Source of the DNA: Okamejei kenojei
Taxonomy: Eukaryota
Direction of reading: 5' to 3'
DNA length: 64,000 bases
Assembly: GCA_035221665.1 (NCBI GenBank)
Contig: CM069134.1
Location: 17,546,001-17,610,000 of the forward strand
The position numbers and the translations under genes are program-made. The notes beneath the pieces are model-generated. The model was given only the letters and a program-made list of their open reading frames with translations. It had not been told where the DNA came from and searched no databases. Each line of letters starts with the position of its first letter. The stretch's first letter is position 1. Shown piece by piece: positions 16,086-62,069 of the stretch.

Positions 16086-16895
16086 CGATCGATCTTGCAC
16101 GACCATCGATTTCCCCCAGATTCTATTAATCACCTGAATATTGGGATCAAATTTACAATGTCTAAATAACCTAGCAATCACACCATTTAAATATGGAAGG
16201 AAACCAGAACACCCAAAGGATAAACACAGGGCAAACATACAAACACCACAGAGAAATTTCCAGAAGTCAGAATTGAACCCAGGTCAATGGCACCGAGCTA
16301 GGCCATTGTAGTATCATTATCTGGTTCCTTGCAACACCACTGTGTCTGCTAGGCCAGGTCCCAGACCTGAAGCATTACCTATTCCTTTTCTCCAGAGATG
16401 CTGTTTGACCTGCTGAGTTATTGCAGGTTTTTGTGTCTAGCCCCAAACCCTTAAACTCCCTAAATTCACTCCAACATGACACGTCACTCTGTCAAATCTA
16501 GGATTGCAGGAAGGGAGCCTTCCTGCTGCCGCTCAGTGAAAAGAGCAGCACCTGACAGGTATACACTGTGTCTCTCTCTTCATTCCTCATTCTTACACCC
16601 ATGTCCTCACTGGTTTTATCTGAAACCTGCATTAGACCCACTTTCCTAATTCATTTTACTTTTCATTACTTAATCCAAAAACAAACTATCCTTACAATAT
16701 TGCAGCACATGTAACCAAGCTATAAGATAGCAGTTCATATGCTGGGTTGCCATGGCACTTTACGATAAATAAAGGTAACTTGGTCTGTGTATATGGTTGT
16801 ACGAGCTGAGATTACTTTGAGTTGTACAAGCTGAAAACAGTTGCAGAAAGAGCGGATCTTTTAACAGAGGCTAGCCAATTTGTGAGGCCTGAAGA

Positions 16896-17090
16896 TGGAC
16901 ACAAAACCCTGGAGTAACTCAGTGGGGCAGGCAGCATTTCTGGATAGGAATGGACGGTGTGGTCTGAAGAAGGGTCTTGACCCGAAACGTCACCCATTCC
17001 TATCCAGAGATGCTGACTGTCCCGCTGAATTACTCCAGCATTTTGCGTCTATCTTCGCTGTAAACCAGCATCTGCAGTTCCTTCCCACAA
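16896..17090 (+). mobile_element. Penelope-like terminal repeat with hammerhead core and an inverted partial copy (fold-back)
   Basis: 16896-16955 is an inverted copy of ~16993-17050, flanking ctgaagaagggtcttgacccgaaacgtc. Confidence 0.8.
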
Positions 17091-18353: not shown

Positions 18354-18500
18354 NNNNNNNNNNNNNNNNNNNNNNNNNNNNNNNNNNNNNNNNNNNNNNN
18401 NNNNNNNNNNNNNNNNNNNNNNNNNNNNNNNNNNNNNNNNNNNNNNNNNNNNNNNNNNNNNNNNNNNNNNNNNNNNNNNNNNNNNNNNNNNNNNNNNNNN
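18354..18500. other. Assembly gap (147 N)
   Basis: Run of N. Confidence 1.
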
Positions 18501-26984: not shown

Positions 26985-27099
26985 CTCAGTCTCTGCAAGA
27001 TGGAGGAAGCGAGAGGGTCATGTCTCTCTAAGCTCTGAATAACACTGAACACATGTCTACTCAACTGTGAGTGCCCTTAATGTGGTTTGAAAATATGGT

Positions 27100-27445
27100 T
27101 GGTTTGAAGTAAAAAGGCACTGCAAATGGTTGTTTGGGGTTTTGGGTTGAAGTAAAAAGGCACTGCAAATGGTTGTTTGGGGGGTTTGGGTTGAAGTAAA
27201 AAGGCACTGCAAAGGGTTGTTTGGGGGGGTTTGGGTTGAAGTAAAAAGGCACTGCAAACGGTTGTTTGGGTGTGTTTGGGTTGAAGTAAAAAGGCACTGC
27301 AACTGGTTGTTTGGGGGGTTTTGGGTTGAAGTATAAAGGCACTGCAAAGGGTTTGTTGGGGGTTTTGGGTTGAAGTAAAAAGGAACTGCAGATGGTTGCT
27401 TGTGGTGTTTGGGTTGAAGTGAAAAGGCACTGCAAAAGGTTGTTT
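27100..27445. repeat. Minisatellite, ~44-bp unit, ~8 copies, inside the Helitron
   Basis: Unit ttgaagtaaaaaggcactgcaaatggttgtttggggttttggg. Confidence 0.9.
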
Positions 27446-27819
27446 GTCTAAACTTGACAACTTCCTGTTTGCACTATATTGATTTTAGATAAAACGTTAC
27501 CACTTACAGCTGTGATTTTTGGCCATCTTAGTAAGTCCCCCTCCGCTCATCAGGTGCAGAGGATTCTTCCCATCAATGAAAAATAAAAGTGTTATTAGTG
27601 TTTAAAAAATGTTGAATTTCTCTCCTGTCAATCACACCATGAAGGCCACACCTTTTCCGGTGGGAGTGGGAGGGATTATAAAACTCGGAAGTGTGAGTGT
27701 GGTCAGTCTCTGCATGATGGGGAGGGACAGGTCACGACTGTCTGGGCTGTAAATCAACTGAACACACTGAATGTCTACTGAACTGAGTGTGGTGTTTTGT
27801 GTGGTTTTATGGTGGTTTC

Positions 27820-28125
27820 ACCCTGCGTGAAATGGTATGAAACTGCATTTGAATCTGGTGTCATTGCACCCTGCATGAAATGGTATGAAACTGCATTTGA
27901 ATTCGGTGGCCTTGCACCCTCCACGAAATGGTATGAAACTGAACTTGAATTTGGTGGCCTTGCACCCTGCTGGAAGTGGTATGAAACTGCACTTGAATTT
28001 GGTGGCCTTCCACCCTGCTTGAAGTAGTATGAAACTGCACTTGAATTTTGTGGCCTTGCACCCTGCTCGAAGAGGTAAGAAAATGCACTTGAACTTGACG
28101 GCCTTGCACTCTGCTTGAAATGGAA
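27820..28125. repeat. Minisatellite, 45-bp unit, ~6-7 copies, inside the Helitron
   Basis: Unit approximately gaaatggtatgaaactgcatttgaatttggtggccttgcaccctgc. Confidence 0.9.
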
Positions 28126-32341: not shown

Positions 32342-34490
32342 TCTTCTTCTTGCGTATGGCATGCACAGCCTTCAGTTGTAGATCAAGGGTAGACATCCAG
32401 GCCAGTTAATGGGTGGATGGCTGTTGATATCACCAGGGAAAAGCCTGAGTGAGCAGCCATTCACGATATGTGGGATGGTCTGGTCTGGATGTCCGCGGTC
32501 GCAAGCAGGGATGTCTGTCATCCCCCACTTATGCAGGTGATGGGCTGTTGTTGCATGGAGGGTGCGGATTCTGTTCAGGGTTAGCCACTGCTTGCGATGG
32601 AGGTCAAAACCCGGAGGTTTCAATGTGGGGTCTGTGATAACCTCTCCGTTGTTGGTGTTGCCAACTTTCCAGGCTCTGCACCAATCAGTCTTGGAGTCAA
32701 AGTCTTCCAGGGATTTAACGGAAGACCAGAAGGGTTTGCGGGACTTCAGGCGCATGTTGGGAAGATTGTTCAAGTCAGAATGGACGGGAAGGTCAGGGTT
32801 AGCCTTGATGCTGCACCAATCTTTCAACATCCTCTCTCTTCTGCATATGGTGGGAGGGGCAAAATGAGAGAGGACAGGGAGCCACTGCAAAGGTGTTGAC
32901 TTAAGCATCCCTGTGATGACTCGCATTGCAGAGTTAAGGACAGTGTCAACTCGTTTGGTGTGGCAGCTATTAGCCCAAGCTGTTGAGCAAAATTCGGCTG
33001 TTGGGTAGACTAGGGCTAAGCTTGCGGTACGGAGGGTCCATTATAGTGGAATTATCCCAAAGGCCTGGAGAGAGTCTAAAGTCATCGCCATCCTCAAGCC
33101 GGGGAAATCTGCTGATGATCCAGCTAGTTACCGACCCATCTTCCTCTTGTGCACATCCTATAAGTTGTTTGAGTGCCTCCTGCTTGCCATGATTTCTCCA
33201 CTGGTAGATCCTGTTCTTCCCAGAGAGCAAGCTGACTTTAGAACTGGTAGAAGCTGTGCAGATCAAGTCCTTGCCCTCACTACCAATATAGAGGCTAGCT
33301 TCCAACGTGCCATGAAAAACTGGAGTTGCTCTCATCGATCTGTCATCAGCTTATGACACCGTGTGGAGATATGGTCTGTTGCTGAAAGCTTCCAGAATCT
33401 TGAAGTGCCAAACCACCATGAGTGCCCTCTCATCCATCCTCAGCAACCGTAGATTTAGGGTTTCGCTTGGGAACCAGGCAAGCTCTGTCAGGATCCCGAA
33501 TGATGATTTCCCCTAGGGCTCTGTCCTAGCTCCCCATCTCTTCAACATTTACGGAAGACAAAAGTGCTGGAGAAACTCAGCGGGTGCAGCAGCATCTATA
33601 GAGCGAAAGAAATGGGCAACGTTTCGGGCCAAAACCCTTCTTCAGACCTAAAATGAAGGTCGGCGGCAGCATCAACGTGGAGGTCGGCGAAGGCGGCGTC
33701 CTGGTGAGTGCTGGAGCTCCTCGTGGCCAAGATGGCGTTGCAGGACTCCGGCCTGGGCCAGAGTTGGGGCCCGGAGCCTGCGGTCGAGTCGCGGAGTTTC
33801 GGTGGCAGGAGCGGCCTGGAGGCGGGCTCGTTTCAGGTCCTTGGTGGAGTTAAGGTGGGCCAGGAATCGTTGATTGAAGAGGTGGATCTTCCGGCGGATG
33901 AAGTAGAGTTGGGCCCCGTTGCAGGTCTGGGTGAGTGAGGCCCGAGGTTTCGGGAGAGTCAATGCGAGGTCCTGCTGTTGCCAGCGCATCGCAGCCAAGT
34001 TAGATCTCAGTGCCCGGTGTGTTGTGTATGGCGGTAAATAGCCAGTCGGTATCGATAGTCCGGCTTGGGTCCGAACTGGGAGGTAGGGAACTGGAGCTGG
34101 AGATGGGGTATGAGATGGAGGCGCAGGCATGTCCCGAGGAAGCAAATGTGACTGTGGTATCGGGTCTGGGTTAGGATGTGGTCGTAGGGGTTGGAGGGAA
34201 GGGGGAAATCACAGAGGGGGAGCAGTTAGAGAGGAGGTTGTAAAACTGTCTTCGGAGGGAGGAGGAGAACTTCTTCAAAGTAGGCATACCTTGAGTATTT
34301 CACAGTGGAGTAGACAAAGTGTTTAAGAAGGAACTGCAGATGCTGGAAAATCGAAGGTAGACAAAAGTGCTGGAGAAACTCAGTGGGTGCAGCAGCATCT
34401 ATGGAGCGAAGGAAATAGGCAACGTTTCGGGCCGAAACCCTTCTTCAGACCAACATTTATGTGAGTGACATGCCAACTACCTCATCCAGG
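32342..34490 (-). mobile_element. Vingi/Ingi-like LINE, 5'-truncated with an inverted segment, interrupted by a Penelope-like element
   Basis: Minus strand 32342-32975 encodes the C-terminus (STPLQWLPVLS...PPGFDL.RKQW.TLNRIRT...HKWG...C...H...C) with a GAA tail. Plus strand 32980-33551 and 34460-34490 encodes RT (KPGK...YRPI.LL...IDLSSAYDTVW...GSVLAPHLFNIY|VSDMP). Confidence 0.75.
33552..34450 (-). mobile_element. Penelope-like element bounded by direct terminal repeats, each with a hammerhead core; 9-bp TSD
   Basis: Direct repeats at ~33556-33647 and ~34359-34450. TSD caacattta at 33543-33551 and 34451-34459. Confidence 0.85.
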
Positions 34491-35509: not shown

Positions 35510-38500
35510 TCTTACCAGAGACAGCGGGCTTCACGATGTTAAGCTGGGCAAGCTGCCTGCAACCTATAAGATCACTATTGATCCCACCGTCGACCCAGCG
35601 GTCCATGCCCCCCACTATGTGCCACATGCCATGCGAGACAGAATTGAGTCTGAACTAAAAAACATGGTCTCCATGGGTGTACTAGCAGAAATCAGCGAAC
35701 GCACAGACTGGGTCTCCACCATGGTTGTCACACATAAGAAAGACAATAACGAGCTCCGCGTGTGCATCAATCCAAGAGACTTAAACATTGCCATCAAGCG
35801 CCCGCACTATCCGATGGGGACTGTCGAGGACATCGCTGCACAAATCGGGCGCCCAACAGTGTTTTCTGAACTAGTCGCAAAAAGCTCGTTCTGGCGGATA
35901 CCTTTGGATGACGAGTCCTCAAACCTCACCACTTTTGCTACACCATTTGGCAGATTCAAATTTCTTAGAATGCCATTCGGCACCAACTCAGCCAGCGAGG
36001 TTTTTCAAAGAACCATGGAACAGGTGTTCACAGGCCTCCTGTGTGCCATCATCGTAGATGACATCCTGGTTTATGGCAAGGACAAAGCGGAGCACGACAA
36101 CGACCTTAAGCTCATTCTGGACAGGGCACGTGAGCTTAGCCTAAAATTCAACCCTAAGAAATGCAAGTTCCGGGTTCCAGAGGTCACCTATGTCGGACAC
36201 GTATTCACTTCCGATGGTCTTAAGCCCGACCCGAAGAAGCATAGAAATATAGAAAATAGGTGCAGGAGTAGGCCATTCGGTCCTTTGAGCCTGCACCGCC
36301 ATTCAATATGATCATGGCTGATCATCCAACTCAGTATCCTGTACCTGCCTTCTCTCCATACCCTCTGATCCCTTTAGCCACAAGGGCCACATCTAACTCC
36401 CTCTTAAATATAGCCAATGAACTGGCCTCAACTACCTTCTGTGGCAGCGAATTCCAGAGACTCACCACTCTCTGTGTGAAAAATGTTTTCCTCATCTCGG
36501 TCCTAAAGGAATTCCCCCTTATCCTTAGATTGTGACCCTTTGTTCTGGACCTCCCCAACATCTGGAACAATCTTCCTGCATCTAGCCTGTCCGACCCCTT
36601 AAGAATTTTGTAAGTTTCTATAAGATCCCCCCTCAATCTTCTAAATTCGAGCGAGTACAAGCCGAGTCTATCCAGTCTTTCCTCATATGAAAGTTCTGAC
36701 ATCCCAGGAATCAGTCTGGTGAACCTTCTCTGTACCTCCTATGGCAAGAATGTCTTTCCTCAGATTTGGAGACCAAAACTGTACGCAATACTCCAGGTGT
36801 GGTCCCACCAAAACCCTGTACAACTGCAGTAGAACCTCCCTGCTCCTATACTCAAATCCTTTCGCTATGAATGCTAACATACCATTTGCTTTCTCGGATG
36901 CCATCCGAGAAATGCCAGCTGCTACCAACGTGCTAAGCCTACAACGATTTCTGGGTATGGTGAACTGTCTGGGAAAGTTCATACCGAATCTCAGCGAGAT
37001 AAATCACCACTGAGACAACTCACCCGCAAGGACACTGAATGGACCTGGTACCAGCAAGATCAACAGGTATTCAAATTTTTTTTTAAACTTCAACCGGCCA
37101 GCGCTCCCACCCTGACATACTTCGACCTGAAGCGTCCTGTCACGATAACCTGCGATGCCTCACAATATGGGCTGGGCGCAGCCTGCCTTCAAACATCTGC
37201 CGATGGGACTGTACTACCTGTATCTTATGCATCCCGCACCATGACGGACACCGAGCAGCGCTACGCCCAGATCGAGAAAGAGCTGCTAGCTGTGGTCTTC
37301 GCTTGCTCAAACTTCAAGGCCTTCAACTTTGGGAACACTTTCACAGTCGAAACAGACCACCAACCACTTGTAACCATCCTGAACAAACCCATACATGCAG
37401 CACCTGCACGACGCAGCGCATGATGATGCAGCTCCTGCAGTTCGGCTTCAGAATCGTTTACAAAAAAGGAAAGGACATGCTCGTTGCTGACACTCTCTCC
37501 CGTGCACCACGTGCATCCAGTGAACGACATCCCTATGAATGTGATGAGCTCACGGTTCTCAAGATTGACTTTGTTTCCACGGAACGCCTGCGTCGCCTGG
37601 CTGAACACACAGCCGCTGACGGCACTCTACAGCTACTCTCATCCATAATCAAAAGAGGCTGGCCAGACAGACAATCCAGCACACCACTGGAGGTGCAGCT
37701 GTTCTTCCTAGTCCGCAATGAGCTGGTAATACAGGACGGTGTCATTGTTAAAGGTCACAAAGTCGTGATCCCTTTATCCTTACAAGACGAATACTACAAA
37801 GAGGCACACACCGGTCACCCAGGTGCCGAGGCCACGTTGGCCCACACACAGAGTATGTTCTACTGGCCCGGGAAAGCCAAGTACATACGGGACAGAACAG
37901 CTTCCTGTCCCATCTGCAACAGTTTGGCACCACACCAACAGAAACAGCCTCTGCTACAACAACCCCCACCAGCTCTGCCTTGGACGTCGCTGACAGCAGA
38001 CATTTTCGAATGGCACGGTAACCACTACCTAGTCAGAGATGCCAACCCTAAATTTAGTTCACAGTAACATTTAACCCATTTGTCCGTAACAAATGGGGTT
38101 AAATGCATTTCTCTCCGTAAACACTCACCTGGGGTTGTTGCCGGCGGCTATGCGCCTGCGCACTGGTTGCAGTATCAGCGGGCTGCCGGCGGGCGGGTGC
38201 GGCACATGCGCACTTGGCATGGTTGCCGGCGGGGTCTGCGCCTGCGCACTGAGTGGGGGTGGGGGGGAGGCCCGGTGATGGGGCTGCCGCGAGCGGCCGG
38301 CTGGCGGCAAGAAAGTGCCGCTGATCGCGCGGGCCGGCGCCGCCCGGGCTCTGGGCCGGGCGTGGCTCGGCTCGAAATCGCGCCAGGCCCGCAAACCCTC
38401 CCCACTGCGCACGCGCGGCACTGGGGCCCCGAACCCTCCCCACTGCGCACGCGCAGCCACTGGGGCCCGGGCAACCCTCCCCACTGCGCACGCGCGGCCA

Positions 38501-39802
38501 CTGAGGCCCCCCGGCAAACCTCCACCACTGCGCAGGCGCGGTCACTAGGGCCCGGCAACCCTCCCCCACTGCGCACGCGCGGTCACTAGGGCCCGGCAAA
38601 ATGCGCTGATCGCGCGGGCTGGCAAACCGGGGACACATGGCGCCGGCGTTCTCGCGGGAGGAACACCGGCGCGGCGGTGTTCCGTAACAGCATGTTTGGC
38701 TGCCGGAAACACCGTAAAAAAAGTTATTTTCGCCGGGACTAAATACGGCGAATCCGGGACACTTGGCATCTCTGCCTAGTCCTAGTCGACTCCTACTCCA
38801 ACTGGTTCGAACTCGATTTACTGCCCACCATCACATCCGACATGGTTATTCAAAAGCTGCAGAGACATTTTTCCGTATTCGGCGCACCAGTCTGCCTGCA
38901 AACTGACAAAGGAAGACAATTTACCAGTCACCCATTCAAACATTTTGCCAACCGATGGAACTTCCACCATGTCACAAGCAGCCCTGAATACCTTCAAAGT
39001 AACGGGCTCGTTGAACGGGCCATCAGGATCGCAAAACAACTAATGGAATGCTCCCACCTGGCCAAGTCAGATGTGTATCTTGACCTTCTAAACCTCAGAA
39101 ACATCTCCAGAGATGGGATCCTGGGCTTACCAGCCCAACGGCTGATGTCTCGGACAACACAATCTCCAATACCAATTGCCCAGCGGAAGCTAGTGCCACA
39201 GGTGCTTAAGCCAGCCGCGGTCCAGAAGCACATCCAGGAGAACCACAACATCCAGAAATGCTCTTATGACCAGAAAAGTCCAGTAAACCACTGAAGCCGC
39301 TACTGCAGGGTCAAGTCGCCCGTTTGCAGACTGTTGTGGGACATTGCCGTCTAGGATTTGTGGTTGGCCCGTCTAAAGAACCCCGCTTGTCAACATCGAT
39401 GGTGCCCTGTACAGACGGAGCCGCCAACACTCGCTGTTTATAAAGGAACCCCGTCCACCTCCAGCCGATCCTTTTGCTCCACCCCTGCTGATTAAACCCT
39501 CTGCTGCTGCTATCACTAGTCCCAGCGGGTCCCGTTCTCCGCCACGGTCGGCAACCCCGTCTAACAACAACACTACCTCTGCCGCATGCTTACCCTACCG
39601 GTCGCCTGAAGTGTCCCCAGCTGCTTTTTCCCTTCTGGGTTCACTGCCTCCCTCCCCCACAACTTTTTCTGGTACGGAGGGAGAGGAGTTGGTCCATACG
39701 CTTTTGGGTCGTATTAGTAGATCGCCTGACAGATACGGCGAGTATGTTTAAATTTGCGCATCTTACCTATGCTTAACCTTATTCACTCTTTACGGGGAAG
39801 GA
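35510..39802 (+). mobile_element. Ty3/Gypsy LTR retrotransposon internal region (RT-RNaseH-integrase), 5'-truncated
   Basis: RT (RMPFG...IIVDDIL), RNaseH (CDASQYGLGA, YAQIEKELLA, TDHQPL), integrase (H..H.G...C..C, ADIF, TDKGRQF, QSNGLVER) in Gypsy order. Polypurine tract ggggaagga at 39794-39802. Interrupted by a CR1 tail at ~36240-36892 and a MITE at 38034-38774. Confidence 0.95.
38034..38774. mobile_element. MITE (hAT-like termini) with 6-bp TSD, copy 1
   Basis: TIR CAGAGATGCCAA / TTGGCATCTCTG and TSD CCTAGT. Removing the element restores the Gypsy integrase sequence HYLVLVDSYS. Confidence 0.92.
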
Positions 39803-55327: not shown

Positions 55328-57184
55328 CTGAGGTCAGGATTGAACCTGGATCTTTGGCACGGTAAGGCAGCAACTCTACTGCCCTCTAACAACCTACAGG
55401 TTTGTAGGTTAATTAGTTAGGTATAAATGTAAAAAATTGTCCCTAGTGTAGGATAGTGTTAATGTGTGGGGATCGCTGGTCAAACTCGATGGGCCGAAGG
55501 GCCTGTTTCTGCGATGTATCTAAACTAAACTAAACGTGGAATCAGGTGTTTGGTTGACCTACTGCAATAGTCATTTGATATCACTGAATTTGCAATTTGA
55601 GGAGGGCATAATTACCATGTCCAGTTTTCTCATCCTTTTATACACCTCGGTCAGATCTTTTTGCAGTATTTATTGAAGCCCAGTCTTCGCTCAGCATTAA
55701 AATTCACCAGTTCTGCAATATCCTCAGATATTTCCTCTGCACTGTATTTATTGCTATGATATCTGTTACATAGTGTAGTTATTAAAGCTGTATGCACTAT
55801 TTGTGCTGTGGTCCAACTAATGCTTTGTGCATTGATGGTTGACTTCCAGGTTTGTGCATTCTTTGCGTCTGTCAGTAAAGACAAACATCTCACATATTGA
55901 GCATTGTCCTGCTTCTGTCATGGTTCTATGGGGACACACTCTAGGATCCCTGAGTCCCTTTACATTTCATGGCATCCTATAATCCTATTGCAAATTGCCT
56001 TTCCAAAAGCAATAAACATTCCTTGAATTGGGTTCCATTTGCCATGACTAACAAATACTTGTGAATGAAAGGTTCACATTCTAAAGTCAAGTGCGTAAGA
56101 GGGAACTGCAGATGATGGTTTACACTGAAAATAGACACAAAATGCTGGAGTTACTCAGCGGGACAGGCAGCATCTCGAGACCCTTCTTCAGACTGAGAGT
56201 CAGGGGATAGGGAGACATAGATATGGAAGGGTAAGATGTGAAAACGAGAGAACAAAGGGGACAAAGCTCAACGAAAATGTAGAATAGATCATTGTTAGTT
56301 TGGGGAAGGTGGCACGAGGCATGCAAATTTAGGAAGACAGTCAAATTCAAGAGTCAGGATTTGTATTATTATTTTATGTTTTAATTTTTTTTAAATGGCT
56401 CCAAAAATCACAAATTGCACAAACGAACAAAAACATCCAGCTGCTAAACCTTTAAATGAAAACAGTAAATCCTGTTGTCCCTCAGATCAGGCAGAATTTG
56501 TGAAAAATAAATGTTTCAGGTGGATGAGCTTTAATGGTGACACGACAACAGAGTTCTTATCTCGACCCAAAAGTCAGCCATTCCTTCTCTCCAGAAATGC
56601 TGTTTGATCCACTGAGTTACTCTAGCATTTTGTGTCTATCTTCAGTGTAAACCAGCATTTGCAGTTCCTTCCTGCACATTTTGTCTGCTTCACGAAGAAA
56701 TCTACTCAAAGTATGCCTACTTTGGTAGATGCATAGAATCCCTTGCCCGGAGTAGGGGAATTGAGGACATAGGTTCAAGGTGAAGGGGAAAAGATTAATT
56801 CTGAATCTGAGGGGTAACTTTTTCACACAAAGGGTGGTGGGTGTATGGAACAAGCTGCCAGAGGAGGTAATTGAGGCTTGGACTATACCAACGATTAGGA
56901 AACAGTTAACACGGGTACATGGATAGGACAGGTTTGGAGGGATATGGATCAGGCGCAGGCAGTTGGGACATGTTGGCTGGTGTGGGCAAGTTGGGCCTGT
57001 TTCCAAACTGTATCACTCTATAAGTTCTCCTCCTCACTCTGATGAGAATTCAGCAACACTCTCTCTCGTTGCTCCCCCTCTGTGCTCTCCTATTTTCAAA
57101 CCATATCCTATTTTCACACCATATTGCTATGCCTCTCTCTCTCTCCCACCTCTGTCTGAAGAAGGGTCTCAACCCGGGGGAATG

Positions 57185-59450
57185 TTGCCAGAGATGCTGC
57201 CTATGCTGCTGAGTTACTCCAGCATTCTGTGTCTATCTCCAGATACGCTGCCTGTCCCGCTGAGAGACTCCAGCATTTTGTGTCTATCTCCAGAGATGCT
57301 GCCTGTCCCGCTGAGAGACTCCAGCATTTTGTGTCTATCTCCAGAGATGCAGCCTGACCGGCTGTTGAGTGACTCCAGCATTGTGTGTCTATCTCCAGAG
57401 ATGCTGCCTGTCCTGTTGAGAGACTCCAGCATTTTGTGTCTATCTCCAGAGATGCTGCCTGACCGGCGGTTGAGTGACTCCAGCATTGTGTGTCTATCTC
57501 CAGAGATGCTGCCTGACCACTGAGTGACTCCAGCATTTTGTGTCTATCTCCAGAGATGCTGCCTGACCGGCTGTTGAGTGACTCCAGCATTTTGTGTCTA
57601 TCTCCAGAGATGCAGCCTGACCGGCTGTTGAGTGACTCCAGCATTCTGTGTCTATCTCCAGAGATGCTGCCTGTCCTGCTGAGAGACTCCAGCATTTTTG
57701 TGTCTATCTCCAGAGATGCTGCCTGACCGGCTGTTGAGTGACTCCAGCATTGTGTGTCTATCTCCAGAGATGTGCCTGACCACTGAGTGACTCCAGCATT
57801 TTGTGTCTATCTCCAGAGATGCTGCCTGACCGGCTGTTGACTGACTCCAGCATTGTGTGTCTATCTCCAGAGATGCTGCCTGCCCTGCTGAGAGACTCCA
57901 GCATTGTGTGTCCATCTCCAGAGATGCTGCCTGTCCTGCTGAGAGACTCCATCATTGTGTGTCTATCTCCAGAGATGCTGCCTGTCCTGCTGAGAGACTC
58001 CAGCATTGTGTGTCCATCTCCAGAGATGCTGCCTGTCCTGCTGAGAGACTCCAGCATTTTGTGTCTATCTCCAGAGATGCTGCCTGTCCTGCTGAGAAAC
58101 TCCAACATTCTGTGTCTATCTCCAGAGATGCTGCCTGTCCTGCTGAGAGACTCCAGCATTCTGTGTCTATCTCCAGAGATGCTGCCTGTCCGGCTGTTGA
58201 GTGACTCCAGCATTTTGTGTCTATCTCCAGAGATGCTGCCTGTCCTGCTGAGAGACTCCAGCATTGTGTGTCCATCTCCAGAGATGCTGCCTGTCCTGCT
58301 GAGAGACTCCATCATTGTGTGTCCATCTCCAGAGATGCTGCCTGTCCTGCTGAGAGACTCCAGCATTGTGTGTCCATCTCCAGAGATGCTGCCTGTCCTG
58401 CTGAGAGACTCCAGCATTTTGTGTCTATCTCCAGAGATGCTGCCTGTCCTGCTGAGAAACTCCAACATTCTGTGTCTATCTCCAGAGATGCTGCCTGTCC
58501 TGCTGAGAGACTCCAGCATTCTGTGTCTATCTCCAGAGATGCTGCCTGTCCTGCTGTTGAGTGACTCCAGCATTTTGTGTCTATCTCCAGAGATGCTGCC
58601 TGTCCTGCTGAGAAACTCCAACATTCTGTGTCTATCTCCAGAGATGCTGCCTGTCCGGCTGTTGAGTAACTCCCGCATTGTGTGTCTATCTCCAGAGATG
58701 CTGCCTGTCCTGCTGAGAAACTCCAGCATTGTGTGTCTATCTCCAGAGATGCTGCCTGTCCTGCTGAGAAACTCCAACATTCTGTGTCTATCTCCAGAGA
58801 TGCTGCCTGTCCTGCTGAGACTCCAGCATTTTGTGTCTATCTCCAGAGATGCTGCCTGTCCTGCTGAGACTCCAGCATTTTGTGTCTATCTCCAGAGATG
58901 CTGCCTGTCCTGCTGAGACTCCAGCATTTTGTGTCTATCTCCAGAGATGCTGCCTGTCCTGCTGAGACTCCAGCATTTTGTGTCTATCTCCAGAGATGCT
59001 GCCTGTCCTGCTGAGACTCCAGCATTGTGTGTGTCTCCAGAGATGCTGCCTGTCCGGCTGCTGAGTGACTCCAGCATTTTGTGTCTATCTCCAGAGATGC
59101 TGCCTGTCCGGCTGTTGAGTAACTCCAGCATTGTGTGTCTATCTCCAGAGATGCTGCCTGTCCTGCTGAGACTCCAGCATTTTGTGTCTATCTCCAGAGA
59201 TGCTGCCTGTCCTGCTGAGAGACTCCAGCATTGTGTGTCTATCTCCAGAGATGCTGCCTGTCCGGCTGTTGAGTAACTCCAGCATTGTGTGTCTATCTCC
59301 AGAGATGCTGCCTGTCCTGCTGAGAGACTCCAGCATTTTGTGTCTATCTCCAGAGATGCTGCCTGTCCTGCTGAGAGACTCCAGCATTCTGTGACCATCT
59401 CCAGAGATGCTGCCCAAAGATTGCTGTGTCACTGAGTGACTCCAGCACTG
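57185..59450 (+). repeat. Tandem satellite, 51-bp unit (49- and 54-bp variants), roughly 43 copies, derived from a Penelope-like tail
   Basis: Unit tctccagagatgctgcctgtcctgctgagagactccagcattttgtgtcta. The same sequence occurs once in dispersed tails, e.g. 17001-17050 and 52050-52100. Confidence 0.95.
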
Positions 59451-59519
59451 TGTGTGTGTTGTGTGTGTGTGTTGGCACTGTGCTGTTTGCTGCAGCACTC
59501 TCTGCTTGCTGCACACTTG

Positions 59520-59980
59520 GTGTTTGCAGTGGGAGTGAGCGGCTGAGTGACGCGGCGAGGGAGGGAGTGACTGGCTGGCTGGCTGCGGACGTGAGGGCCG
59601 CTCTCCGCTCCTTCCTGGTGCCCGCCTGTAGGCCGCGATGGCGACCACTTTCGTGTCGGTGCCGCTGAAGAAGGCGGCCGAGGTGGACCTGTCCAAGCCG
59701 CTGTCCAAGTTCATCGTGGCCACCTACCCGAGCGGGGAGAGCCAGGCCGAGTACGTGCGGGCGGCCGAGGAGGTGAACAAGCTGCGGAAGAGCGCCGTGG
59801 GCCGCCCGCTGGATAAACACGACAGCTCCCTGGACACTCTGCTGCGGTGAGTTGGGCCCTGCGCCCTCTGATCTCTCCCCTTCGCCCACCTCGTCTGTCT
59901 CCCTCTCCCCTCCTGACTCTCAGTCTCAACCCGAAACCATCGCCCGTCCCTTCTCCCCAGAGATGCCGCCCGTCCCTCTG
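59520..59980. promoter_or_regulatory. CpG island / PDCD6IP 5' UTR and exon 1
   Basis: CpG-rich stretch around the ATG. Confidence 0.7.
59638..59846 (+). CDS. PDCD6IP: Programmed cell death 6-interacting protein (ALIX), coding exon 1 (start of Bro1 domain)
   Basis: Translates to MATTFVSVPLKKAAEVDLSKPLSKFIVATYPSGESQAEYVRAAEEVNKLRKSAVGRPLDKHDSSLDTLLR, the ALIX N-terminus. Kozak context gcgATGG; 209-nt exon ending at a phase-2 donor CG|GTGAGT. Confidence 0.96.
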
Positions 59981-62069
59981 AGTTTCTCCAGCTTTTTGTG
60001 TCCCTCTCCTGAGCTGGGACTCGATGGGGACCCACGGCACAGACACCCCAATCACAACATAAACCAAAACATACCGATCTGGTGCGAACAGGTCGTCCCA
60101 ACGCCGGATCCTTGTGAAGGAGGCCTCCAGCGGCTCAATCCTCTGAGTCACTTTTACTGCCTCCTTTCAAAAGGAAACTTTTTAAACAATATTCTTCCTT
60201 GTTCAATTGCATCTATGATTTTTTATTTTATTTTGTTAGGAGCTGGATATCTTTTCTCAGTAGTGGGATATTGAGAGCGCCTGTCGTTTAAATCGAGCAC
60301 AGCTACCACCATTAGGAAGTTCCAGATAATTTCAGGAAGTAACCTGAATGGCGAATTATTGTGTCGCAGAGCACCTCAGGAAAAATCGTTCAGGAAAAAA
60401 CTTCCCTGAACTATTGGATTTTTTTGTGCTTGTTAATACCTTAAGCACGAGTTAATAGTTTGGTTTTAAAACTAACTTGAGAACAAAGTAACCACGAACA
60501 TTAATGTTACCTTGTTAAGATTAAATGTGAAAAGAAAAGTGACAGTTTAAATTAAAAAAAATAATAACAAAAAGATTGAATACTGGACATAAGAAGTAAA
60601 AACAAAATGCTGAAGCTCTTACAGGGTATGTGGTACATGTGGGTCTAAGAAGCTTTCCCATTATTAACCTAGAATTACACAGCATGGAAATAGACCCTTT
60701 GGCCCAACATCCATGTTGACCAAAATGCTAGTCCTATTTGGCTCGTGCTTCTATGAGCCTTTCCTATTCATGTACGATAGGTAATGGGTGATACATTGGT
60801 GTATCTGGTAGAGTTGCAACCTCACAGCACCAGAGACCTGGGTTTGATCTTGACCTTGGGTGCTGTCTGTTTGCACGTTTTCCCTGTGACTGCATGGGTT
60901 TCATCAGGGTGCTCCCCCTTCCCTCCACATCTCAAAGATGTACGGGTTTGTAGGTTAATTGGCCTTTGTAAATTGCCCCTAGTGTGCCAGCGGTGGTGCA
61001 AAAGTGAAATAACACAGAACTAGTGTGAATGTGCAATTGATGACTGGTGTGGTCTCGGTGGGTTGAATGTTTCAGATGGATTGGTGGTGCTGCTGCTTCC
61101 CAGAGCCAGAGACCTGGGTTCGATCTTGTCTACAGGTACCCAGGGGTCTGGTGCTGTGCAGAGTTTCTGTGTTCTCTACAAGCCTTTACCATCACCTTCT
61201 CTCTTTCTTCTATTGCCAAGCCAATTTTGGATCCATTTGTCAACAACTTAATTTTCTTTCAGATTGTCTCCCACGTAGAGGCCCTACTAAGGTCCATGTA
61301 AATCACATCAATGGTCCTGCCCTCGTCAACACACTTTGTTATTTCTTCAACATTTCAATCAAATTGGTCAGACATAATCTGACCAAGTCATGTTGGCTGT
61401 CTGAGTAGACCCTGCCTTTCCAATATGGAGACATATACTAGATTTCCACCTATGTCTTCACTGAATTCTCCAATTACAAAGTCTGTTTCCTTTTTGGTAT
61501 TGTAATGTAGAATATTGATTTAGGATCTCATTTATACCCTTGACTCCGTACGCAGTTTTTCCCTGTAGTCCCTAATGGGCACTACTTTTTCAGTGGTTAT
61601 TCCTATGCCCTTGGTGTATTTATAGAAATATAGTCTTGATGGTCCTCCCTAGTTATTAGTTCCCAAAATCTGTAAAATGCTTCCTTTTCTCTCTGTCCTG
61701 TGATAGCCTTGGTTCGCCCTACTTGTTACCATGGCTTTTACCTGTATAGAAACATGTTGACAATTAACATTTCCCAACATAGGGGAATCGTAGGTTTAAG
61801 TTGAGAGGTGAATGATAGAAATCTGAGGGGCAACTTTTTCCACAGATGGTGGTTGGTATATGGAACAAGTTGTTAAAAGAAGTAGTTGAGGCTAGTATAA
61901 TGACCACTTTTTAAAGAGATTTGAACAGATACAAAGATATAAAAGGTTTAATGGCAATGGGCCAGAAGCGGGCAAATTGAACAAGCTTAGGTAGGTCATT
62001 ATTGGCATGGACAAGTTGGGCCAAAGGGCCTGTTTCAATGCTCTCTGACTCTTGATATTTCTTCTTTTA

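Follow-up and report, generated by a model that had tools for sequence, protein, structure and literature searches.

We analysed a window of 64,000 nucleotides from the skate Okamejei kenojei (contig CM069134.1, positions 17,546,001 to 17,610,000), in which a long tandem array stands directly in front of the first coding exon of PDCD6IP, the ALIX gene. This array is a minisatellite of a known kind, the transposon-derived multilocus minisatellite, and its unit corresponds in sequence to the segment of a Penelope end repeat (pLTR) that lies directly 3′ of a minimal hammerhead ribozyme. With a little more than even confidence, we favour the reading that the array is a neutral passenger which has grown in place beside a CpG-island promoter prone to amplification.

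Structure of the array

Tandem Repeats Finder places the array at 57188-59414, with a period of 51, 43.3 copies and 90% matches, in agreement with the initial annotation, which had described a tandem array in front of PDCD6IP. Split at the unit start, it resolves into 43 units of 47-54 bp on the + strand (57188-59400), 22 of which are 51 bp long, 12 are 54 bp and 6 are 49 bp, with one each of 47, 50 and 52 bp; 30 distinct sequences are found among them. A 44th, decayed unit extends to 59455. The array is the longest of the 37 loci with at least 5 units in the fetched loci, the next longest holding 25 in one run, and the only run of N in the window (18354-18500) is distant from it. The array and the start of the gene comprise:

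57188..59400, + strand: CpG-poor run of 43 units (47-54 bp), head to tail, each derived from the pLTR segment behind the hammerhead; from Tandem Repeats Finder and unit splitting; ribozyme core in 0 units
57856..58613, + strand: duplication of a 7-unit, 360-bp block in about two copies, with 3 mismatches
58794..58989, + strand: four identical 49-bp units, an expansion that looks recent
59401..59455, + strand: decayed 44th unit passing into a TG-rich stretch and carrying the last upstream ATG (59407)
59456..59637, + strand: unique proximal stretch without an ATG, with a CpG island from about 59520; predicted to hold the likely core promoter and 5′ untranslated region (UTR)
59638..59847, + strand: first coding exon of PDCD6IP/ALIX, 70 codons, donor at 59848; from its translation and a PDB match (E 8e-25)

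The array has the make-up of a transposon-derived minisatellite, in which units of 10-100 bp, copied from part of a dispersed element, follow one another head to tail. The 360-bp higher-order period, and with it the higher-order satellite, that had been proposed earlier does not hold: it is one duplication of a seven-unit block, present in about two copies, of the sort that any minisatellite collects. At a lag of 7 there is a single run of 7 near-identical units, every other lag giving 3 or fewer, and the identity is limited to about 57856-58253 and its copy. A higher-order repeat would be a multi-unit block repeated many times and exceeding the identity between units, whereas this block occurs about twice. 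The translations of 57857-58204 and 58217-58564, which had been called identical, are indeed the same on the + strand, but the DNA differs at 3/348 bases.

Growth of the array in place

The units carry variants of their own. At a diagnostic position the ancestral TT is found in 60/62 dispersed copies and in 1/38 scored ALIX units, the other 37 having AG, TG, AA or TA, and a further array of the segment, at FBXL2, has its own variant TA in 8/9. Because the arrays carry private variants, their growth was local and independent. Moreover, similar ALIX units cluster by position (Mantel r 0.17, p 0.002), and mean unit differences run 4.7, 3.1 and 2.8 from the 5′ third to the 3′ third on the promoter side. 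Private variants and positional clustering together are the signature of local expansion in a transposon-derived minisatellite, and they uphold the earlier claim that a transposon-derived segment was amplified here in tandem.

We envisage that a pLTR landed at the edge of the CpG island, a position in which pLTRs are common. The first duplication may have used the short CT-x-TCT similarity that, from flank counts, the two unit ends share in dispersed copies, and slippage and unequal exchange would then have extended the array by single units and by blocks, for the most part next to the island. The newest units do lie by the island. As the destabilising cause we would favour recombination directed to promoters, or else the initiation of replication there. 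Promoter-directed recombination is described for birds, which lack PRDM9 (PMC11600626).

Arrays of the same segment at other apparent promoters

The exact 17-base junction has 121 occurrences in the genome, 40 of them in the ALIX array and 13 at FBXL2, which lies 640 kb away; most of the other matches among the 100 listed occur once or twice per locus. The census of arrays is a lower bound, the DNA searches having scored 40 candidates each. Apart from PDCD6IP, 5/36 arrays of at least 5 units end at an apparent first-exon CpG island. Arrays placed at such islands, with one shorter run, are:

FBXL2 array: about 23 units, split by a long interspersed nuclear element (LINE), at a first-exon island; downstream exons found by motif and PDB match
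CEP20/FOPNL array: at a first-exon island; FOP_dimer 8 kb downstream on the same strand
L146 array: 11 units at a first-exon island
L140 array: antisense, in intron 1, at a first-exon island
L041 array: antisense, in intron 1, at a first-exon island
L023 (G000:C36:9.431 Mb, − strand): 3 units that stop some 100 bp short of an island with CCAAT, a short ATG exon and a donor

The L146 gene is putatively MFSD14A and the L140 gene putatively SNX7. PDB and Atlas searches for the former returned nothing, an F-box family search gave no hit at the FBXL2 locus, and 20-50 kb searched at each of the L140, L023 and L041 genes yielded no second exon.

Promoters were also sampled independently of the array, by a motif that we presume to be of YY1 type: 70 of its 160 matches were sampled as loci, and 28 passed a filter for a CpG island and non-repeat sequence. 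None of these 28 promoter-like loci holds a pLTR array. Sense pLTR copies stop within 500 bp upstream at 6/28, with 1.9 expected (p 0.013). The initial annotation had the array ending about 190 bp before the ALIX ATG, which is close to the 182 bp left after the decayed 44th unit, but the short unique upstream stretch that it singled out is no peculiarity, since at 7/28 of the promoter-like loci a pLTR copy ends within 500 bp upstream. An unrelated minisatellite of at least 3 copies occurs in 12/28 promoter-like cores, compared with 28/400 control windows (p 9e-7), 19/200 region-matched windows (p 3e-5) and 11/56 of the cores' own flanks (p 0.025).

These observations suggest, tentatively, a wider proposal: that tandem amplification in this genome has its hot spots at CpG-island promoters, and that Penelope ends land preferentially at island edges and have been amplified there repeatedly (PDCD6IP, FBXL2, CEP20 and three more). 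If so, around four in ten sampled housekeeping promoters would be partly built of minisatellites. Should promoter-directed recombination also be the driver, cartilaginous fishes would provide, at many loci, natural promoter variable number tandem repeats (VNTRs) with which to test how the placement of recombination remodels promoters and whether repeat number tunes housekeeping genes.

Six of the sampled cores (L101, L103, L232, L237, L241 and L245) consist of 6-14 copies of 24-37-bp units less than 500 bp from the motif, and these units carry CCAAT, GC-box or cyclic AMP response element (CRE)-like words. A young pLTR subfamily, with 17,045 exact ends, lies in sense orientation directly upstream of apparent first exons in 2/30 sampled copies; its sites are L041:2430-2550, L140:2440-2320, L224:6187, L323 and L325, with the hammerhead intact at L041 and L140. 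It is possible that this subfamily prefers island edges for insertion.

Is the position at promoters more than chance?

The arrays were compared with 176 single copies, drawn from 40 stretches of control DNA and from 60 loci found by pattern, and both tallies omit runs too near a locus edge. By eye, 5/36 arrays and 4/176 single copies stand at genic first-exon islands (p 0.008). The excess of arrays at promoters, two- to seven-fold, is suggestive and not settled. Expansion specific to orientation, with the 3′ end facing the island (6/6), was also considered and rejected, as the single copies nearest promoters lean alike (16/24, and 6/7 within 500 bp upstream).

Several points weigh against a passenger of an amplification-prone promoter. 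The genic calls by eye were not blind, and a fixed CpG-island rule applied to both sides gives 6/36 arrays and 12/176 single copies (p 0.06), one of those six arrays being an artefact of a short interspersed nuclear element. Held-out arrays of 4-5 units touch an island in 0/6 cases. A short-period class has 5 of 13 or 14 at islands (p 0.002-0.004), a class defined after seeing the data. Moreover, 31/36 of the other long arrays lie away from promoters, about nine arrays are one family near the start of contig C1, and GC-rich control windows hold minisatellites in 9/32 cases, a frequency not distinct from that of the promoters (p 0.18). As to mechanism, slippage driven by hairpins is rejected, the unit folding as DNA or RNA no better than shuffles (z -0.5 to -0.8). 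Searches for the SSXRD and KRAB domains of PRDM9 gave no match but had no positive control, and passages of PMC5519329 describe a partial PRDM9 in some cartilaginous fish and mention no skate. Finally, the neutrality of the array is something that we infer.

The strongest competitor appeals to chance and regional instability only. Among hundreds of thousands of pLTR copies some would have become tandem, mostly in GC-rich or end-proximal DNA, and one would border a promoter by chance, as pLTRs border many. Such a view gains from the position of the arrays, 15/29 of those on contigs of known length lying within 10% of an end (8/22 after family collapse, p 0.056), from single copies that also touch genic islands (2/30 young copies), and from the p of only 0.06 under the fixed rule and the 0/6 held-out arrays. 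However, the longest array and a second large array with the same junction (FBXL2, 640 kb off, with independent variants) both end at first exons, and of the six arrays beside promoters, five are 12-23% away from the end of a contig. We think chance alone rather unlikely. The genic islands touched by single copies are presumably RPS13-like and SMIM19-like starts.

The PDCD6IP promoter and possible function of the array

The promoter of PDCD6IP likely lies in the unique stretch 59456-59637 and exon 1. The observed/expected CpG ratio is 0.11 in the array, 0.55 in the unique stretch and 0.95 in exon 1. Neither CCAAT, GC-box, CRE-half, AP-1 nor ETS matches occur in the array; it holds 36 GATA-type matches and 44 ATGs, the last of which, at 59407, opens a 10-codon frame, and no ATG follows in 59456-59637. 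If transcribed, these ATGs would be a burden on the 5′ UTR. Similarity to contigs of two other organisms begins at 59557 and 59561 and continues downstream, and one of these contigs has 160 further unlike letters, the first 30 of which resemble 59530-59560 and are promoter-like. A contig guessed to be RNA, from an organism other than this one, departs from the window at precisely the donor (59848) and continues in other sequence. Because the array is CpG-poor, holds 44 ATGs and has cross-species similarity starting only downstream of it, near 59535-59561, it is probably not a source of promoter activity, and the earlier suggestion that it supplies such activity is disfavoured. In four runs guessed to be RNA, 0.84 of the words are present; X6, which is one of these, and X10, X12 and X17 lack cover of the unique stretch, possibly an effect of the filter. 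A bacterial promoter scan and the list of open reading frames were uninformative.

A contig obtained from this organism in a different sample and study, though not demonstrably from a different individual, runs across 59360-59882 with 3 differences, and the junction of array and promoter is therefore not peculiar to this assembly.

Tuning of PDCD6IP expression by array length is possible, though the present analysis lends it no support. As a fuller alternative, the array would be a co-opted VNTR, acting for example through the GATA-type sites or as a methylated boundary by the island, with copy number as the dial. Its position less than 200 bp from the ATG, the 36 GATA-type matches and the common sense orientation of four upstream arrays would all suit such a role, and human promoter VNTRs do change expression, at TRIB3 (cited in PMC8327921) and at 187 genes (PMC8096271). 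Against this, the array is CpG-poor, ATG-rich and free of promoter motifs besides the GATA type, variants have piled up freely in it (30 unit types in 43), and other species align from about 59557-59561 only. Moreover, two of the arrays are antisense in intron 1, and the sense orientation is common to single copies near promoters (6/7 within 500 bp). We consider co-option unlikely.

Origin of the unit and the 5′ flank

The sequence in front of the array holds a Penelope-type unit in pieces, and a further remnant lies beyond exon 1:

56560..56724, + strand: 3′ part of a Penelope-type pLTR with truncated hammerhead, and following sequence; matches 34414-34276 at 78% and, at 77-85%, numerous copies dispersed through the window; intact core absent
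56744..57021, + strand: inserted 278-bp 3′ fragment of another repeat; 81% to 4572-4274, with shorter matches at 4 more places
57022..57090, + strand: continuation of the Penelope-type unit after the insertion; 77% to 34272-34204
57156..57187, + strand: decayed remnant of a minimal type I hammerhead that retains CTGAAGA and helix II but no longer has GAAA or the cleavage triplet; core pattern absent
59923..60007, + strand: single pLTR remnant at the start of intron 1; 73-86% to dispersed copies

The matches of 56581-56724 to 34414-34276 (78%) and of 57022-57090 to 34272-34204 (77%) support the initial annotation in its account of a Penelope-derived unit at 56560-56690 with an internal part matching about 34240-34320. 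That account was silent on the fragment at 56744-57021, which interrupts the unit and which we take, from its translation, to be a CR1-type LINE. The decayed hammerhead that it placed at about 57156 is there, with CTGAAGA kept and GAAA lost, and this remnant (57156-57187) folds no better than shuffles (z 0.13). Elsewhere in the window the intact core pattern is found at 16964, 52009 and 34448, and it occurs 21 times in 400 kb of controls. It is absent from both strands of the array and from each of the 44 units, and Rfam at the gathering score gives 0 matches in the window.

Copies of the unit segment are numerous. The window holds about 16 others, 400 kb of control DNA gave 136 runs, and the end of one subfamily is present in 17,045 exact copies across the genome. 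At L041 a frame matching RVT_1 (Pfam, E 1e-7, over the cut-off) is followed by a 3′ UTR, an intact hammerhead core and a related unit, and this order bears out the statement that the amplified segment normally lies just 3′ of the ribozyme. A homologous end repeat behind a reverse transcriptase (RT) frame, and a minimal type I hammerhead in the parent repeat, mark the unit as a derivative of a Penelope pLTR; the L041 element is a sister subfamily of the ALIX unit and not the identical one. From its translation we presume a GIY-YIG-like motif in the L041 frame, and two broken frames that were scanned gave no Pfam hit.

Two further Penelope features of the window may be mentioned. On the − strand at 33550-34450, some 650 bp of GC-rich non-coding DNA stand between two pLTRs that carry hammerhead motifs, and the whole looks like an internally deleted Penelope copy inserted in a LINE fragment. 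At 16889-17085 a head-to-head pair of pLTRs forms a strong hairpin (z -3.4) around an intact hammerhead core.

Relation to known systems

Transposable elements are reported to have given rise to 23% of human minisatellites, including an Alu array of 17 x 52 bp (Ahmed and Liang 2012, PMC3389668). As described there, a sub-segment of an element expands locally at several loci and few arrays reach high copy number, which is also the case here; in this skate, however, the element is a Penelope pLTR and the host a cartilaginous fish, and several of the arrays stop at CpG islands of apparent first exons. The parent repeat resembles the Penelope pLTRs with hammerheads of Cervera and De la Pena (2014, PMC4209133) in having a minimal type I core in which an additional base precedes helix II, a palindromic helix III stub and a place behind an RT frame, whereas the amplified unit lacks the ribozyme and the adjoining copy is dead. 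Non-LTR retrozymes (bioRxiv 10.64898/2026.07.22.740005) include Penelope pLTR-derived tandem repeats in a chondrichthyan, with a shortest consensus of 51 bp, and carry a hammerhead per unit, which is found here in 0/44. The array is not such a retrozyme, because no unit has a ribozyme and the hammerhead in front of it, which lacks GAAA, is dead. Very improbable, too, is the view that the array length is an artefact of assembly or that the array is a retrozyme-like multimer from rolling-circle copying: mis-assembly of long repeats does occur and tandem hammerhead repeats are known in animals, but 30 unit types stand in an ordered pattern, the contig of another sample spans the junction at 59360-59882 with 3 differences, and the core that retrozymes need in each unit is found in none.

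The 33-bp promoter VNTR of TRIB3 (cited in PMC8327921) is likewise a minisatellite that lies no more than a few hundred bases from the start of a gene, but the unit here is CpG-poor and without the usual promoter motifs. Human VNTRs are enriched near CpG islands (PMC8096271). We found no published account of this array or of Penelope minisatellites at skate promoters in a search that stopped short of subscription papers and supplements, where repeat libraries may hold the unit.

Taken alone, the array is ordinary, a transposon-derived minisatellite near a gene start. The surrounding pattern lifts its interest slightly, with independent amplification at several first exons and sampled promoters rich in other minisatellites, and a genome-wide link between promoters and tandem amplification is a lead worth following. 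If a full census confirmed it, the sites of repeat growth would be tied to chromatin at promoters or to recombination, in a vertebrate lineage that has received little study, and ready-made alleles would be at hand for tests of expression tuning.

Related arrays and other minisatellites

Two families of related arrays were seen, neither of them at promoters. Near-identical 54-bp arrays of a sister pLTR subfamily (7-25 units) are clustered at the start of contig C1 (G000:C1:0.3-4.4 Mb; L040, L128, L136, L157, L158, L162, L179, L200 and L201). Arrays in a 66-bp register of this region take in the GAAACGTC half of the core of the hammerhead, without CTGAAGA, and are found at L043, L044, L049, L059, L062, L091, L165, L168, L169 and L175, many of them near contig ends. 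Further arrays, at L016, L017, L018, L020 and L024, consist of a 30-36-bp hybrid unit, part pLTR segment and part TG microsatellite, in as many as about 27 copies. Of the junction-bearing loci listed, six form a local cluster within 1.5 Mb around FBXL2 and PDCD6IP (G000:C4:16.26-17.72 Mb). Within the window itself, other minisatellites lie at 27099-27446, 27819-28123 and 38386-38599, with units of 45, 48 and 41 bp in 5-8 copies, the last being GC-rich with TGCGCACGCGC words.

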